A DNA stretch of 55,468 bases, the filler included, from Sluysia triapertura (taxonomy: Eukaryota): NCBI GenBank assembly GCA_046118255.1. It is 4 parts of 4 records of this genome, joined end to end, with 100 filler letters (N's around TTAATTAATTAA, not from the genome) between each part and the next. Parts side by side here need not be neighbours in the genome. Positions count along the whole stretch, not along the records: positions 44,361 to 55,468 come from JBJNIA010188765.1; 3 more parts are not named here. One strand, 5' to 3'. Each line of letters starts with the position of its first letter. Position 1 is the stretch's first letter. The notes below the pieces were generated by a model. That model did no database searches. It saw only the letters and a list, made by a program, of their open reading frames with translations, and was not told the DNA's origin. This document shows positions 22,558-51,559 of this stretch, one piece after another. Position numbers and translations under genes: made by a program.

Positions 22558-22911
22558 ATGTCAAATTAAAAAAAGAATTCAACAGAGTCGATTACAAATA
22601 ACTCGACATCAACCAGTGAAATTATTAGGAGTGACGGAGATAAAACAAGAATATTCTCTAAAAGAAATATCACGCAATTTGATGTTAACATGACGCCATT
22701 AATCCGATCAGACTTGGACGACAAATTACGATTAGTGAAGTCCGGCTTGTGTTTGTATACTACTCGAAATGGAAAATGTGTAATGTATGGCAACAACTGT
22801 CGGTATGTACACAATGCAACCGAATTCTCAGACAAAATCACTTGGACTTCGAACTTAGTGGATCATATGTATAGAATAAAGCAATTGATATCATCATTGA
22901 ACACAAATTAA
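22558..22911 (+). pseudogene. CCCH zinc-finger (TIS11/ZFP36-like) gene fragment or pseudogene
   Basis: KSGLCLYTTRNGKCVMYGNNCRYVH is C-x8-C-x6-C-x3-H with the K..LC lead-in and G.C.YG..C.Y.H pattern. The frame is open from 22570. An in-frame ATG at 22558 is followed by TAA at codon 4. Confidence 0.6.
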
Positions 22912-26940: not shown

Positions 26941-27927
26941 ATAATTACTTTATAAGTAATATAATAAATAGTAAAAATTACGCCCACATATCGGGATTTA
27001 TCAGAAATAACGTCGTAGTACAAATTAAATGTAAATTATTTTACTATCTTAAACAGCCTCTCATATTTTAATCAATAATATAAAATAACACAGATAACGT
27101 AAGATAATGTCGATAAAGTTGGTGAAATGAACGATTTTTTAGATGAAAGGTTTGAATCAGAAATATTAAAGGAGCATAATAGATGTTTATTTAAATTTAT
27201 TAAAATTAAATTTGTTTACGGTTAGTCTTGTAATTCTTAGACTTATTTTTTAATCAAATAATAACTATTGCATATTTAATGTTGTCTTTGTTCACTTGTT
27301 ACTTAAATTAAGTAAAAAATAAAGGTTTAATAAAAACTATAAATTCTATCGACGAAATAATAAAATTACCAAAGTTATTCGTAAATTTTAATCAAATAAT
27401 ATTCTTTACTAAAATTAACAACTCTTAAATTATTCAAACACATTCAATACTTTGTTCGACAGATTCAAACAGTCTATTTGAAAAAATTATGGTTATAATT
27501 AAATAAAATTCAAATTCTTTTTCAAATTTATTAATAATGATAGAAAGGTATTGTCAAATATTTTAACGAAAACCCACACGTAATTAATTAATTTTTAAAT
27601 TATTTAATTCTAGACATTATTTAAAACTTATTATCAAGTAAAATAAATTGTCAATCCGCTATTTTACTCGAACCAAATCCAATGATCTACTCGAATTTCG
27701 AATCTTCATGTCTGACAATGTAAAAGCAAGAATTTATCTGTCTTCTAAAACGAGTTCTTCCTATAATCAATTTCGTTAATCTATTTTGCTCTACTATAAA
27801 AGACTACTACTTACCTTACAAATGATACATCTCATTTAATGTAAATATTTAAGAATTTTGTCTTTTCTTGATTATTTTGTTACGAATAATTCATGTAAAT
27901 GACCGAATTAAAACATATCGAACTTAA

Positions 27928-28613
27928 AAGTAACCGAACCGCAAGCTTAAATAAAAATAAAAAACTTAAAAACGACAAATATAATTTCTTCTTTGATGTC
28001 ATTTTATGTGTTATTCATTTCCTTCTTATTGATTTTATTGATTTTTGTCCAGCATGCGCTTATGGGCCCTCATTCTGAAAAATGAGGACGAAGGAATGAA
28101 TGGACATGTTAATAGACACAATTGTGTTTATTGGGAGTGAGAACCCATCGCACTATCGAAACTGAAGTCAGTGTTCCTGGAGTCACAGTCTGGGTTGGCC
28201 CATTCTTCTTTGAAGGAATAATGAACTTGATATGCTGAAAACTAAAATGTTTCCTATTGTTAATGAGTTCCTCCACTTCGGTTATCTTCGTTTTCAACAA
28301 GATGGAGCACATGCGCACTACAGCAAAGATGTTCTATGACCTGATCTGACACCGCCTAATTTTTTCTATGCGGGGTTCTAAAGAACACAGTTTACACTAA
28401 AAATCCCAGGATAATTGATCAACTAAAACAAAGTATTCAGCACGAATGGAACCAAAATTCAAAGAAAACTTGCCAGAAAGTATGTCGCAGTGTTGTCAGA
28501 AGATGTCGTGTTTGTATTGTAATTCAAGGTGGATATTTTGAATATTTGTAAATACTAAATATACCTATTAAATTTGTCGTTTTTTGATATCTAATTTTAT
28601 TTAAGTTTGCGTT
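27928..28613 (+). mobile_element. Internally deleted Tc1/mariner-superfamily element (rosa/DD41D-like), copy 1
   Basis: GPFFFEG, FQQDGAHAHY, PDLTPPNFF, VYTKNPRIIDQLKQSI, CRVCIVIQGGYFEYL*. Long subterminal inverted repeats (AAAAACGACAAAT / ATTTGTCGTTTTT). Confidence 0.88.
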
Positions 28614-41510: not shown

Positions 41511-42029
41511 CCAGCATCGAAATAATATAAATAAGTATAAAAAATAATATTTTGTAGAATTTTGACCAGTATTGAAACAATATAAGAAATTTGACCAATA
41601 TTACAATAATATAAATAAAGATATAAGTTTAAGAAGATTTTAAGGATCAATATTAACAAGATTTTGAAAAATTTAATAAGATTTTTATAAGAATTTATGA
41701 TTTTTAAGAAGAATTAACATAAAGATTAAGTAATTTAGAAGATTTTTTGACTAATACTGACATAAGAATTAAGAAGAATTTAGAATCATTATTGAATAAT
41801 TTAAGAATTCATGAAACACTTTTGAGGATTAAGATTAAGTATTTCAAGGATTATTAGTGAATTAATATTAAGAATTTAAGTATTGTATTAAGATTTCGTT
41901 AAGAATAAGATAAATTTAAGCAAAATTATTACTCCCTAAGTCGATTATTGATAGATTTAGTAAACTTTAAGAAAAATAGATAAGCGAGTTGTACTTTCAG
42001 AAGATTACAGATCAAAGTTAAGGAATTAT

Positions 42030-43104
42030 ATGGCTTTAGCTAATGAATTTAAAGATGAATTTACCTGAAATGAAAAAATTTGACGGAACAGAGGAAGATC
42101 TCTGCGATTTCTTCTGCGTATAGCAGAAGCTAATGGCTGGAATGAAGCCAAGAAAATAAAACGGATCCAAAATTACCTAACTGGAGTAGCTATCCAGACA
42201 TATAAAGAAATAAGTGATAATAAGAAAACTTGGAATGAATTTGTTAATGCATTTACAAAAGAAATAGCCCTTGATGATATGGGTAAATATTATGCAAAAA
42301 TGCTCAATACTAGAATACAAAAACCTAATGAATCTGTATATGAATATACTTGCGCTCTTAAAAGCCTTGTTGCTAGAGCAAAAATTCCAGAAGCTAACAG
42401 AGAAGTAACATTGAAAGATAAATTGAAAACTGGATTACGACCTGAATTAATAACTTATGTTAACTTAATAGAAGGAAAACCTTTTAAAGAATTAATTCAA
42501 ATATTAAGGAACATTGAACGCTCAATTATACATAAGAAAAATAAGAATAATATTGATATATAAGCGATAACGAAGAAAAGGGAGATAAAAGCATGAAATT
42601 AACAAGAAATAATTATAATGATAATAAATTTAACTCACGAAATTATGAAGAATATAATGATAACAACTAGAGTCAGGAACGACATAATAGCCCACGTAGA
42701 GGCAATAATAATTCAAATTCAAATAATTATAGAAGCAATGATAATTGCAGAAATAATTTTAAAGGTAATTCAAATAATTATAGAAGAAACAGTTCGAACA
42801 ATGACAGGGGTAGCTCAAACAATTATAGAGGAAGTAATAATAATAGATGATTCTATATAGAACAAGTAATTATGGTGCTTCTAATTATGAACAAAGACCA
42901 GTACCGAGATGGCCACCAAGTTCTAGTTTTAATAGGAATAGAAGTAAAAGTCCAACAAGATATGAAAACAATAATAAGACTCAAACTAATATAGATGGAG
43001 AATTAATCTTTGACAACTGTAATAAGAAAGGACATTATGCAAGAGATTGTAGGAATTTAAGACAAAATGTATTTACTCAGGATTTTAATAAGGTAAGGGG
43101 ATAA
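42030..43104 (+). pseudogene. gag: Ty3/Gypsy gag (capsid + zinc knuckle), frameshifted
   Basis: LPEMKKFDG, AEANGWNEAKK...YLTGVA...Y, TWNEFVNAF, RIQKPNESVYEY (retrotransposon gag MHR-like), GLRPEL, an N/R/Y-rich linker, and FDNCNKKGHYARDC (CCHC knuckle with the first Cys lost). Confidence 0.93.
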
Positions 43105-44260
43105 TACCAAAGCCCCAATGGGAAGGTAAGGTTTAGTTACAATAACAGTAGGAATAATAAGGGACAGGTTACTTGTAATTATAGAAGCCAAAAATATTAT
43201 GAAAATGAATATGAAGATGAAGAACAACAACATAAAGAAGAAAGGAACAGAAGCAGAAGACAACCAAGAAGAAGAGAAACGGGTAGTGATGAAGAAGATA
43301 ATAAATACCTTAAGTTAATTTCAGATGAAGAAACGAATGAAATGCTACGGGAATTCTATATTACTGGATTGGGTTGTGACAAAAATAGATTTAAAAATAA
43401 ACAAGAAAAAGAAATTTTTATGAGTTATATATATGATAGATATTTAGAATTTCAAAAAGATAAACAAAGAAGAGAGCAATGAGAAAAAGAAGAAAATAGA
43501 TTAACCATCCAATCAATTCAGGTAAGAATTCGGGAATTATTTTCGGAAGAGAGTATTGAACAAATAAAGGAGATAAAAGAAGTAACATCAAATGAAGATA
43601 AAAAGAAAAGGATTCAAGAATTAATTGACAAATGGGAAGGAAAGATGAAGAAACCAGACTTAGATAAGCCAGTTGATAAAGAAATAGAAAGTAATGATGA
43701 AATAGAAGAGGAATTGAATACAGAATCATCTCCAACAGAAGAAGAATAGAGTTTAGAATCAAGCTCAACAGAAGAAAAGATAAAACAAGAAGGAAATCAA
43801 TAAAACAACTCAGAATTAAGTGATGATCAAGAAGTAGAGACATATAGAAAATATAATTTACAATAACAAAACAGATGATGAAGAAATTCAAGCAGAAGAA
43901 ATGGAATTGGATGATGAAGATGCTTATTACAGTGGCACCGAAGGAATGGAAATAGAAGAAATGGAATCAATAATGATAGCGGCTAACGATAAAATAAATA
44001 CCTCAGAAATTAAAGAAGTTAATCAAAAAGTTGAAGAATTTTTAGCTAATATGACACGTGGCAAAGATTTAAATGATTTATTGAATTCGGAATTAAGTTT
44101 ACAAAATGGACATGATAAAAAATTAGTATTAGCTATTTTAAGTAAGGAAGATAGTTTATATAAGACAAAGGTGAGAAAATTATTGTCGAACCCATATTTT
44201 ACGTCATTTTAAAAAAATAATAATTTGATTGAGAATTTAGAAAGAAGAATGACACTAGAG
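43105..44260 (+). pseudogene. Decayed Glu/Lys-rich polyprotein extension after gag (no protease/RT reached before the spacer)
   Basis: Strong GAA/AAA codon bias with scattered stops. ORF 43901-44212 is acidic and helical-looking. Confidence 0.65.
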
Positions 44261-44360
44261 NNNNNNNNNNNNNNNNNNNNNNNNNNNNNNNNNNNNNNNN
44301 NNNNTTAATTAATTAANNNNNNNNNNNNNNNNNNNNNNNNNNNNNNNNNNNNNNNNNNNN
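44261..44360. other. Artificial contig spacer
   Basis: 44 N + TTAATTAATTAA + 44 N. Confidence 0.97.
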
Positions 44361-44569
44361 TTTACTATAACTGTGTGTTAAGAATGATTATAAATACAAA
44401 TTTGTGGATAAAGAATAAATTTATGTTATATTATTATATTATTTTAATTAATAATGAGCCTGTTACGTGCCTTAAGCACGATTTCATAATCAAGATCATT
44501 TCAAAAATTATAAAAATCTTTCTGATAAAATAAATGATAAAATTAATAACAATAATAATTCTTCATTAA

Positions 44570-45576
44570 TTTCTAAACTCAAACATCATAATTACAATTC
44601 TAATATCAGTGAACATATATCCACAATAGTCCTCCTTTTTCTATTGTGATTTTATCTACTATGTCTGTTAATACTTTAGCCTTTTTTAGGGGGAACAAAA
44701 TTTCTTACCAAACGGCTTGAACGTCTTCTTTAGTTTATATTTGAAATGTTTTTTGATTCAAAAAGTTTCAGCTTTCTCTTTAATTCTGTTAATCCTATTA
44801 TTTCAATATTTTCGTTTTTTACATACTTCTTCTATTGGTGATTCATCATCTTTTTGATATAGAAATAGAGAAACTAAGTTAAATTTCACTTGATTTAAGA
44901 ATATCAGGGGGCATTTGAATTTATTTAATTCATAAAATAACGTTGATTATCCGGCATCGCAACTTGTTTTATCGATTCTATAATACAACCGAGATATCAT
45001 ATTTCCTTTCTCAATATCGAAACTTTCATTGTATGACTTTAAACTTACTACATACTTTTCTTGGACAGCTGCATTATGATAAAATTTACCTTCGTATTCG
45101 ATAGATCCTCTTTCACATGTTCCTTCTGAATGTAAATTGCTTGCAGTTCTAATATAAATTATTTTTTCATTGTTTCTTATTTAAACCTACATATCCGGTC
45201 TAAAACGCATCTTTGCAATTATTTTAAAATGTTTTAGTATATTTGATAACTCCATTATTGAACAGTGACCGTGGCATCCATAGTACGATATTGCTAGTGA
45301 CCTTTTAGCTGTGCATTCTCTTGCTAAAGTAGTGACTAGGTTTCCTTCCTGATAAATATTTAAAACTTGTGTGTCTCTTATTTGTACTCGATTCGTTCTG
45401 GATTCTGGACAATCTTCTGTATCTAACAAAGAGAATTTTCTATCAATTTGTGGTTTACTGCAGTCAAAGGCTTTTATATCGTTGGTTTTGTTTATTCCAA
45501 ACGTAGCTAATAATGTTATTACGAGGAGCGAATTATTGAGTGAATTACTTAATTTAGGCATGGTATTGTTTAACAT
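44570..45576 (-). pseudogene. Chuvirus-like (gB-like) envelope glycoprotein, N-terminal half, frameshifted and truncated
   Basis: Hydrophobic leader LLVITLLATFG, then AFDC...FSLLDTEDC...YQ...EC...SYYGCHGHCS. After frameshifts: CKDAF*TGYV, EGTCERGSIEYEGKFYHNAAVQEKYVVSL, SCDAG*STLFY...C, DYCGYMF. Order and spacing resemble chuvirus-type G (GYDC, SLLD..C, YCG.H.H.S, C....TG, G.C.G, NVVVQ, CGY). Confidence 0.8.
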
Positions 45577-46821
45577 AACATTGTTCTTAAATAAACTTGA
45601 TAAAATATCGGAGGATTCATTTTAATTATTCATTTGCATTAATTGTATTTCTCCAACCTTCTTGTTTGTCAATCCAGAGTTTAAGTTTCTTATCGATAAA
45701 TTATATGACTTATCGATTTTCTCCATAGTTAGTGACTTTGCTTTATCATATTGAAATGTTACACAAGCTAAAATTATTTCAATTGTTTCATTATTAACCA
45801 GTTAATTTATTTATTTTAGTTTACAGTGCTCAGTATCTATATAATTTTCTATATAATATTGTTGGGATTGCCCAACTGTGGATGAGGAGTTGAGCAAAAG
45901 GCACATGGAACCATAAATTGGAATAAGAGTTGATACGAAGTGAGAGATTGAGCATTATAAATATTGTAGAAAAGGAATAATGAAAATAAAAACGTTGATA
46001 ATAAGGTTAGCAGCTGAAGAATACTTTGACCTTCCAAAGACCTACATAAGATGTCGAGAACTTGTGGAGGCGTGAATTGGACTTAAAAAACCTTTGAAGG
46101 AATTAGAATATCTGTGAATTTGTTAATTCAATGATCATCGAAGACTTTATCAACCTTTAAGTATTCTTGAAACCTTGATAAGCATCTAAGACCTCGAGTA
46201 ATCTTATAAAGTGTTTAAAATATTTAAAAGACTTGAGAAATAATATAGTTGTTCAAAATAATAAAGTTAAGTTTAAGATGGTAAAAATTAACATGAAGAA
46301 CAAGAAAAAGGAATCAGAGAGGTGAAGGTAAAAACATCTAGAGCCTCATGAATGCTTTATAAAACCTTTAAACATAAAATAAGTTTAAAAATAGAATTAA
46401 TTAATTCAAATTTTAATTAACTTAATTAAGAAAAAGGTACGTTTTTATGAATGTGAAATGCTATGTTAAATTTGAAACTGTGTTTGTATTTGTTTTGAAA
46501 AGTCCTTTCGATGAAGGTATGGTTTTACGGAGTTCATGCAAGGAAAGCCTCAATATTGAGCAAAGTCAAATTTTAATTAATTTTTAATTATGAAATGTTA
46601 AATTTTTAATACTTCGAGTAATGCAAATATGATCATTGGAATGCGAGATGATTGCTATGAAAGAGGAGAATCTATGAATGAACTCGAAATGTTTGTAAAA
46701 TGGTTGATTTGAGAATATTTTTCATTAGAAAATTAGGTGTGAAAAATCGAAAATCAATTAAATTCTAAAAAGTGACATTAAATTCATTATTTTTATGTAT
46801 GTTAATAATATTGTTAATTGT

Positions 46822-47150
46822 TATTTTAATGTGAAAATAGATTGAGTAGAGTAAAAGAAAATGATGGCTAATAATAAATCAAATTTCTATGTTTGGTACA
46901 TAATGAAGTTTGATAGACCGTACCATGTAAATGTCAAAGTTGTTCTTGTCGGTTTGATTGTTAAAGAGGTTAGGATGATTTATGTGAGAGAGTGTTTGCT
47001 TGTGAGACTTAAGATTGATTGGATAATGAAAGAGTATAAAATAAAATTTGTACAACACAAGACACAGTCACACATTCACACAATCCTACCCGCATTGAAG
47101 AACCATGCATGTGGTAATCTTTTTATTTATTTTTACGTTTTATTATTTTA
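46822..47150 (+). repeat. Copy 1 of a diverged ~330-bp direct repeat containing TATAAAA (47035)
   Basis: Collinear with 49950-50275 (TGAGTAGAGTAAAA, AAGTTTGA.AGACCGTACCAT, CGGTTTGATT, AGAGTATAAAATAAA, TACAACACAA, CCATGCAT..GGTAA). Confidence 0.88.
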
Positions 47151-47810
47151 TTATTTTAAATAAACTAAAATAAGTAAATTTTTTTGGTAAGTATCTTAAG
47201 AATAGTCTTGTGGGAGACACTCAGCCCACATCATTTTATTTTGAATTAATTATTTTATTTTTAGCAATTTTAATTCAACTTTCTGGGAGACACCCTGTCC
47301 AGTTTATTTTTAAAATATTTTGAATTATTTGATTTTTAGCGATTTTAAGTATTGAAATAACTTTGTGCACACACTTTAAAAGCAGAAACGATTATGCAAA
47401 ACATTGTCCTTATCTCATCCTCTAAAACAATTTGTAACACGACCTGCTTAAGTCTGAAAAACTTGCAGAAGTACGAGTGGGACCAATTGGTGCCAGCAGC
47501 GGTGAAAGGGTTAACAGTGTTAGGGCTTTTATTTTATGAGAGCTGTCCTCTTGACTTAAAATGACTGAGTTTGATTTAATACTTTGTTCATCACTCCAAG
47601 TCATATATGAAGTGAGTAAACTATCCACATTTTTGTCAATATTTTTTTGCTTCTGCGATACCGCTTTGTAAATCTTTAAGGAACTTTCGTGCCTCTTTAC
47701 CTAGAGCTCGCTTAGGAGTATTCTCTTCTTTTTCTTCATTGGCTGAAATTTCCACTCGGATTACCTACTTTTAGTTTACCTTTATTTCGTCCTTATTTAT
47801 TGGCTCATCG

Positions 47811-48277
47811 ATGGGTTGGTGCATAAGTTCGTGCAGTTTTTTACAATTATGAAAAATGCATACTGATCAAAAATAAAAACCATGCAAAAAATTCCAAATT
47901 GAGTTTATTAAATCATTAGAAAAAACAAATGTCGCAGTCTCAAATATCTCCGCCACAATCGATCACTTCCTTCCACCGTTCTGTCAGTTTGTCAATCCTA
48001 CGTTTGAAGAAGCTTGATGATTTGGGGCTATGCTTCTTCGTTTTCAAATGTGAGACCAGAAAGATGGTTCGACATGGAACGGAAAAGGAGTAGATGCCGG
48101 AAATGTTCATTTTTATCTACATGACACTCCATTTTAATGAGGATAATGAAAGTGTAGTCTAAAATGATTTAAAAAGATAAATCAGCTGAATGAATATAAC
48201 TCAAATCAGTCAAAACAAGAAGTTGGTGTGTTTTCTTTGAAACAAGTAAAATCGCACGAATTTAAGCACCAACCCAA
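47811..48277 (-). mobile_element. Internally deleted mariner (DD34D) element
   Basis: TIRs TGGGTTGGTGCATAAGTTCGTGC and GCACGAATTTAAGCACCAACCCAA|TA. Minus strand encodes LFRSMSNHLSGLTFENEE and SFFKRRIDKLTERWKEVIDCGG. Confidence 0.93.
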
Positions 48278-49949: not shown

Positions 49950-50275
49950 ATTTTAATGTGAGAAGTAATTTTAGTAAAAATAGACTGAGTAGAGTAAAAA
50001 GAAATGATAGTAGATAATAAATCAGATTTATATGTTTTGTACCTAATAAAGTTTGACAGACCGTACCATATAGTTGTCATTGGCGGTTTGATTCTCAAAG
50101 AGATTTGGATGATTTGTGTGAGAAAGTGCTTGATTGTGAGGTTGTGAATTTATTGGATACGAGAGTATAAAATAAAGATTTCAAAATTTTTACAACACAA
50201 TAATACAATAACACAACAATGATGATAGAAGATCCATGCATAGGGTAAAATTTTTAATTTTTTTTTATTTATTTA
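49950..50275 (+). repeat. Copy 2 of the ~330-bp direct repeat (TATAAAA at 50166)
   Basis: See copy 1. Confidence 0.88.
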
Positions 50276-50740
50276 TTACCATTAAGGCAGTAAATTTTGC
50301 ATCACAGGTAAATTCACTAATTATTTCATTTATAATTAGATTCATTGTTGTAAAACCACATCAATATGATCTAATGAATGAAATTATGCAACAATTTAGA
50401 ACAATATTAAATAAGTTTAATACTGAACAGGTCCCTCTTCTTGCTGAGAAGGTAAATTACGTAGAAAACAGTATAAAATTGTAAAGTTTTTCAAGTAGAT
50501 GTTAAATAATATTTAAATAAGAAAAGCATTAAATTTTGTATTGTAATTGAAGCCAAAATGTTTTGTTATGAAAGTTTTACTAACATTTGTATATATAAAA
50601 TATTAATTTAAATTTCAGATCTTTATTTAATTAAATAACTAAAAGTATTTGTGAAAAAAAATTATTCAAACAAATATAATTTTACAGTGATTTGATATTG
50701 TTAATTTTCCTGATACAAAAATGTGACAATTTTGGATCAC

Positions 50741-51559
50741 TTAATTGTTATTTATAGAATATTGACTTTGTGAGTAATCATCTTTAACAGACATCCTTTT
50801 AATCTTATTTTGGGAATTTAGTAATTTATTCATTCCATACATATGCGATAAAGCGTTCACTGCTTCACTTTGATTGAATTTTAAATTTTGATATTGTGAA
50901 GCTGCTTTATTGGTTAAATTGCATTCAGTAACTCCATCAATCATTCCATAATTACCAGAATAATAAATATTCGATTGATATTTTCTTGGCGGTAAGAAAC
51001 TTCCAGACCAATCTCGGTCAAGTAAACTATCACAAATATCAATTTTTTGATCAGTATAAGTTATCATTACTTTACACACTGGATCATTTAGATTTTCTAT
51101 TACGGAAAGTTTTGTTAGTTTAGGTTCAGCTTGTCTTTTATAAAAAGTACTAGAAATTTTTTTTGCTTCTTTCGACATCGCAGAATGAAAAACAGGTATA
51201 TAGTTTAAAAAGTGTACAGATCTATAGCGACGCATAAATTCCGTTTCTACTTGAATTGATAAACGTACTTTGTTTAAATAAATTAAACGTAAATATTTTT
51301 GGTTTTGTACTGTATTAATTTCAGGATAAAATAGTGTACCATTTGGACGCAAAAAATCTAAATCAGCCAAATTCAAATTTTCAAGTATTTTTTTCCTTTT
51401 AAATTTACGCTTTAATATAACGATATTTTCATCATCAAGTTTAGTTTCTAACTTTGATCGACTTCTTAACTTTGAAAAAACATTTTTTCGTATATCACTA
51501 TTTAGGTTACATTTATTTTTTAAAAAGTTATTCTTATTGCCAAAATTACACTCATTCAT
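50741..51559 (-). CDS. Intact intronless 272-aa ORF of unknown function
   Basis: Longest uninterrupted ORF in a stop-rich AT background. Minus-strand TATATAAA at 51590-51597, ~30 nt before the ATG, and AATAAA at 50622-50627. Basic KRKFKRKK cluster. No family recognised. Confidence 0.6.
   Translation of the reverse strand: MNECNFGNKNNFLKNKCNLNSDIRKNVFSKLRSRSKLETKLDDENIVILKRKFKRKKILENLNLADLDFLRPNGTLFYPEINTVQNQKYLRLIYLNKVRLSIQVETEFMRRYRSVHFLNYIPVFHSAMSKEAKKISSTFYKRQAEPKLTKLSVIENLNDPVCKVMITYTDQKIDICDSLLDRDWSGSFLPPRKYQSNIYYSGNYGMIDGVTECNLTNKAASQYQNLKFNQSEAVNALSHMYGMNKLLNSQNKIKRMSVKDDYSQSQYSINNN

Follow-up and report, generated by a model that had tools for sequence, protein, structure and literature searches.

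A broken, internally deleted class III env gene in Sluysia triapertura, likely from a giant Ty3/gypsy Gag-Env-Pol retrotransposon

We analyzed a 55,468-nt stretch of Sluysia triapertura DNA (the window), joined from four parts with filler between them. On its minus strand lies a 129-aa ORF with an ATG at 45576 and a stop at 45189-45187, whose frame remains open for 75 codons further upstream of the ATG apart from one stop (45624-45622), as the first-pass annotation had recorded. The features around this ORF are as follows:

41493..44260, plus strand: decayed gypsy-type gag, with capsid (42084-42560), zinc knuckle (~43015-43053) and a primer-site-like TGG at 41493
44261..44360, no strand: assembly spacer (44 N, 12 fixed letters, 44 N), one of three identical 100-nt spacers in the window
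44446..44559, minus strand: possible env transmembrane remnant, hydrophobic and collinear (profile columns ~564-592)
44630..44734, minus strand: second env piece, profile columns ~497-531
44827..45528, minus strand: class III (chuvirus G / gB-type) env ectodomain, N-terminal ~245 of ~650 positions, assigned by PF24664, profile and Foldseek
45493..45528, minus strand: internal signal or first membrane segment, hydrophobic, before the first conserved Cys (45462)
45531..45801, minus strand: upstream part of the env frame, ~90 codons with one stop at 45624-45622
45860..47230, plus strand: very highly repeated LTR-like sequence that begins TGTTGGG and borders the env frame upstream; right end uncertain

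Read in a single frame with X at the stops (P0001), the env matched the Pfam family PF24664 (Monjiviricetes fusion glycoprotein). The match, at E 2.1e-11, covers positions 5-198 of the 653 in the model and scored 43 bits against a curated cut-off of 27, a cut-off that the 129-aa ORF also exceeded on its own. A profile built from the fetched relatives matched 45528-44800 at E 5e-50, and frameshift-aware scoring placed profile columns 2-245 at 45528-44827, in a single frame apart from 45220-45170, with 189 bits (0/5 shuffles reached this score; best shuffle, 23). The short second-frame stretch at 45220-45170 likewise scored above all 40 of its shuffles. Within the first 250 profile positions, seven of nine conserved cysteine columns are filled, six in the main frame and one, read by eye, in the second-frame stretch. 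The class III glycoprotein identity of 44827..45528 is far beyond chance, and these Pfam, profile and shuffle results bear out the chuvirus-G/gB-like glycoprotein proposed in the first pass; the main match, however, occupies two reading frames and not the three noted there.

The leader peptide noted earlier also holds up. The hydrophobic stretch at 45493..45528 has a best 13-residue Kyte-Doolittle mean of 2.34, and a comparable stretch precedes the first cysteine in all 22 relatives examined for a leader, short fragments left out, with means of 1.67-3.32 at the same place. More than 140 residues lie upstream of this leader in the same ORF in 21 of these 22 relatives, and the window env likewise has an internal signal with an open upstream frame that contains one stop. 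This upstream part, 45531..45801, is likely the linker ahead of env in the polyprotein; at iE<0.5 it matched none of the relatives tested over the 200 residues that precede their env, and we infer its identity from position.

The gene is nevertheless broken. The matched stretch at 44827..45528 holds three in-frame stops as well as the short frame excursion at 45220-45170, and sequence below 44827 scored at chance level against profile columns 245-420 (40/40 shuffles equal or better), which rules out both the by-eye idea that env is collinear down to the spacer and the earlier claim that the glycoprotein continues collinearly below 44827. A second env piece is present at 44734-44630, matching columns ~497-531 with 28.1 bits (0/40 shuffles; best shuffle, 18.8); a second profile scored this piece at 21.0 bits (0/40 shuffles; best, 20.7) and extended it to 44798, and tblastn of P0004 against it gave E 0.024. 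Since columns ~497-531 here come after columns 2-245, ~220-250 ectodomain codons are missing. A complete ectodomain with its anchor was not found in the window, columns ~250-465/495 being absent, and the env copy is unable to encode a full ectodomain. The hydrophobic segment at 44446..44559 may be a remnant of the env transmembrane segment, and as an anchor it scored no better than chance (39/60 and 23/60 shuffles equal or better). A chuvirus-like 'CGY' near 44620, considered as homologous, lies in a different frame from the 44734-44630 match and is probably coincidental. A search of sequencing runs found the env locus in one run, with no RNA run among those listed; one contig of this run, X1, spans 44649-45880 with zero differences, so the breaks are present in the DNA of run X1, which is possibly the assembly's own source.

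We also modeled P0001 with AlphaFold from 27 sequences (mean pLDDT 65, high over residues ~140-310). Foldseek against BFVD ranked chuvirus and chu-like G first (E 2e-12 to 1e-9, 13-18% identity), followed by xinmo-, rhabdo- and herpesvirus proteins, with 74 matches at E<=0.001. In the PDB, the top 10 rows were all class III fusogens (gB, VSV G, Thogoto Gp and GP64) at E 0.002-0.008, and no row reached E 0.001 or better; a PDB search by sequence returned four weak RAD9A rows and no fusogen. A wide VIA fold search yielded nothing at Z>=5 and was uninformative, being dominated by the N-terminal helix (residues 1-49). The predicted env fold resembles those of chuvirus G, gB and rhabdovirus G, and the AlphaFold and Foldseek comparison proposed in the first-pass annotation came out in its favor, both in BFVD (chuvirus G top, E 2e-12) and in the class III character of the PDB top 10.

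The carrier of this env is best approached through its relatives. A phmmer search over 1.84 billion representatives returned 41 matches, 14 of them at E<=1e-10, and the 11 matches of at least 1000 aa were all within the 20 proteins scanned with Pfam. In nine of these 11 long relatives, the ORF that encodes env also encodes part of a retroelement: a retroviral-type protease follows env in seven, plus a weak one in P0005, and RT, RNase H and integrase follow it in four; for the remaining two, P0018 and P0041, the Pfam scan showed env and no retroelement domain. A zinc knuckle lies upstream of env in P0009 and P0015, and an upstream gag match was obtained for P0005 as well. P0043, a 4844-aa cluster mate of P0004, combines env, several proteases, ankyrin repeats, RT, RNase H and integrase, while in P0008 and P0042 env is preceded by a Bcl-2-like domain, in a region with homologous counterparts in P0002, P0015, P0026, P0045 and P0047. 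That a retroelement carries the glycoprotein, as first proposed, is thus seen in relatives whose env shares an ORF with protease, RT, RNase H and integrase. The longer polyprotein that the first pass envisaged keeps its internal signal peptide but not its layout: because env in the relatives sits mid-polyprotein and is followed in frame by protease and Pol, it is an internal rather than a C-terminal module.

Three further observations concern these proteins. P0043, P0006 and P0009 carry two to four protease-like domains behind env in one polyprotein. P0003 is a gypsy Env-Pol polyprotein labeled at NCBI as a bacterial MAG protein, and is likely animal DNA in a metagenome bin. In P0036 (370 aa), the start of env is fused to a mitochondrial ribosomal L47 domain, either by gene capture or as a prediction artefact.

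Across all 30 relatives, identity to the window env was 20-36%; the ten best of polyprotein type reach 30.3-35.6%, against 21.7% for P0034, the sole relative that starts at its leader. In a tree of 31 rows, which includes no named chuvirus, the window env adjoins P0003 among polyprotein envs, with weak deep support (44-60 around the window branch). By these sequence comparisons, the window env is closest to polyprotein-borne env. Other searches added little: word-indexed protein searches with the one-frame reading yielded no match among 1460 candidates of 227-723 aa or among 934 of 724-2065 aa, an alignment search gave five matches among 7999 scored, none of them named, and in viral contigs none of 14 pattern matches was confirmed.

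The retroelement-rich setting described in the first pass is real, with the qualification that the gag lies on the opposite strand and across a 100-nt spacer. As 44261..44360 is an assembly spacer, the sequences on its two sides need not be neighbors, and the env piece ends at this spacer, before Pol could begin. Within the window, the env copy has no linked pol, no LTR pair and no gag on its own strand, and no long direct-repeat pair surrounds it; the flanking frames scanned contained no Pao-type Pol domains, the nearby frames scanned with Pfam contained no polymerase or nucleoprotein family, and no Bcl-2-like domain matched upstream of env, where the repeat borders the frame. The plus-strand gag was recognized by Pfam (Retrotrans_gag, E 2.7e-5; zf-CCHC, E 1.8e-4) and carries a long acidic tail. 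Its matches include the N-terminal parts of P0015 (E 2e-15) and P0005 (E 4e-10), both of which bear env in the same ORF, so this gag likely represents a related Gag-Env-Pol family rather than the env's own copy. Just upstream of its primer-site-like motif, 41388-41461 forms an 82% inverted match with 3-79, and this repeat is possibly the LTR of the gag.

The repeat at 45860..47230 gave no Pfam match in any of its three plus frames and shows no target-site duplication at its candidate ends; a 73% partial sister copy lies at 49965-50278 (plus strand), and the repeat is likely a later insertion. A primer-site-like TGG occurs at 47185, and a 9-mer is found twice, at ~47212 and ~47287. Summed contig depth, which is not copy number and comes from one run that is possibly the source of the assembly, reached 1.7 million over this repeat, 16,000-234,000 over the gag part and 9,000-39,000 over env, compared with 18.9 for the exact contig and 31-190 over quiet flanks. 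We read the depth over env only as a sign of many diverged sister copies.

Elsewhere in the window, an exon of an ornithine decarboxylase-like host gene lies at 6240-6587 (plus strand; Pfam Orn_Arg_deC_N, E 1.3e-11), weak CCCH zinc-finger matches below cut-off at 22570-22911 (plus strand), and a 272-aa open frame that has no Pfam match at 50741-51559 (minus strand). Several direct-repeat blocks of 80-94% identity occur in the same order at 27926-28584 and 30042-30791, probably two copies of one transposon. By eye, 47930-48250 (minus strand) resembles the C-terminal end of a mariner transposase in its motif, with no Pfam support. The window has a GC content of ~24% and contains ATT microsatellites; a flatworm host is plausible, and these two properties, together with the kind of relatives found, would point to a dugesiid.

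Several origins for the env copy can be weighed against this evidence. It could be a piece of an endogenous chuvirus (Jingchuvirales) glycoprotein gene that inserted alone and was amplified later, and the chuvirus G models are indeed the best viral fold matches, PF24664 is named after these viruses, and no pol is linked to env in the window. We nevertheless regard such an insertion as highly improbable: identity is 13-18% to viral G and 30.3-35.6% to polyprotein env, a rough contrast given that the former comes from structure alignments and the methods differ; the frame extends 75 codons beyond the ATG on its upstream side, as it would in a polyprotein; and the nearby frames scanned contain no polymerase or nucleoprotein family. 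A BEL/Pao env of the mosquito Anakin type, one of the precedents cited in the first pass, is just as hard to credit. Such elements have precedent in mosquitoes (PMC7642597), and by eye the plus strand at 45860-46350 at first resembled the end of a Pao integrase. That assignment is unsupported, as 45860-46350 had no Pfam match in any of three frames, and the motif match to the published mosquito BEL env rows is poor by eye. Peptidase_A17, DUF5641 and DUF1759 are Pfam families specific to Pao. No family from this list appeared in the sets of 20 and 9 proteins scanned, and the Pol of the relatives is gypsy-type; as judged from these sequence matches, the likely type of carrier is Ty3/gypsy and not BEL/Pao.

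The plus-strand gag and the env could instead belong to one element, with env antisense or one contig flipped. In keeping with this, two of the polyproteins that bear env match the gag in their N-terminal parts, and one spacer lies at or close to the end of each piece. The two nevertheless face each other tail to tail, ~9.6 kb of other sequence would separate them if the right-hand piece were flipped, their summed depths differ (gag, 16,000-234,000; env, 9,000-39,000), and env is sense and in frame in all relatives, leaving little room for this arrangement. Domestication of env as a host gene, to serve in cell fusion or as an antiviral decoy, has a precedent in the solo glycoproteins described for mosquitoes (PMC7642597); three stops in the matched stretch, the frame excursion, the large deletion and the many diverged sister copies bring domestication close to refuted for the window copy.

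We therefore favor, with a probability of about 0.85, a broken and internally deleted class III env that likely derives from a giant Ty3/gypsy Gag-Env-Pol LTR retrotransposon and is likely dead. In intact members of such a family, one long polyprotein would cross the ER membrane twice, first at the internal signal and again at the env anchor. Gag, and in some members the Bcl-2-like domain, would remain cytosolic, the internal signal would direct the env ectodomain into the lumen, and the env transmembrane segment would stop transfer, so that the protease, RT, RNase H and integrase that follow stay cytosolic. The parts would then be cut free by signal peptidase together with the protease that the element encodes; trimeric env on budding particles may fuse them with neighboring cells, for example stem or germ cells, and the element would multiply by retrotransposition. 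The window copy would have decayed afterwards through deletion, point changes and a neighboring insertion. The topology, processing and cell-fusion steps of this scheme are modeled on established membrane-protein biology. More speculatively, the host may harbor an undescribed, still infectious retrovirus-like family that threads env from the middle of a Gag-Env-Pol polyprotein and passes from cell to cell into the stem-cell pool, with the plus-strand neighbor as a second, more abundant family of this kind; we consider this unlikely. The window env is only about one third identical to any sequenced relative.

The locus itself is a fossil and adds little, and the broader interest lies in the unusual problem of membrane topology and processing posed by an env inside a Gag-Env-Pol polyprotein. 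Gag-Env-Pol elements of the kind in question are known from planarians, as Burro and the flatworm 'errantiviruses'. Because the kind of element has already been described in planarian flatworms, the window env is likely not a newly found chuvirus capture, and with flatworm elements of this class in print the copy at most extends a host range or family list. The independent capture suggested by the first-pass annotation, which knew of no earlier description, is accordingly unlikely: the arrangement is published in flatworms (PMC6431247, PMC13524379), and PMC13524379 argues that the association is ancient.

The closest systems in print are those flatworm elements. Planarian Burro (GYPSM1), a giant Ty3/gypsy element of Dugesiidae, has env in frame between BCL2 and protease; its env matches mononegavirus fusion glycoproteins and is likened by HHpred to gypsy Env/F-type proteins, and decayed Burro fragments occur in Dugesia japonica (PMC6431247). 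The relatives of the window env similarly place env between a Bcl-2-like domain and protease in a giant ORF, whereas the window copy has no linked Bcl-2-like, Gag or Pol domain, and its env is class III where Burro's is likened to gypsy Env/F-type proteins, a comparison made on the published description. Nine flatworm gypsy elements with gB-type GAG-ENV-POL organization, six of them in Schmidtea, are listed in PMC13524379, in which the Schmidtea families (Smed_errantivirus_1-6) have 1-215 intact copies each, the env of Platyhelminthes errantiviruses is HSV/gB-type with cysteine pattern C1a, ENV-POL matches are given for all three dugesiid genomes found in the table, the GAG-ENV-POL association in flatworms is argued to be ancient, and the discussion states the entry mechanism of gB-bearing elements to be unknown. 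The window env resembles these elements in its gB-type env, in the same order of motifs by eye and in being multicopy, and differs in that the published elements are intact and the window copy is broken and deleted. Over the first ectodomain strand, compared by eye with the published sequences, it shares 10/18 residues with Smed_errantivirus_1 and 2/18 with mosquito BEL-51.

Mosquito Anakin elements, which carry a chuvirus-like glycoprotein (PMC7642597), are LTR retrotransposons as well but belong to the BEL/Pao superfamily, and the BEL-51 motif is the one that shares just those 2/18 residues by eye; mosquito BEL/Pao elements and arthropod EVEs are covered by PMC7642597 and PMC10084718. The G of chuviruses and other Jingchuvirales shares the fold family and the PF24664 model with the window env and provides its best viral structure matches, yet is only 13-18% identical to it in structure alignments, and whereas viral G is a free-standing gene of ~650 aa with an N-terminal signal, the window family carries an internal signal inside a polyprotein.
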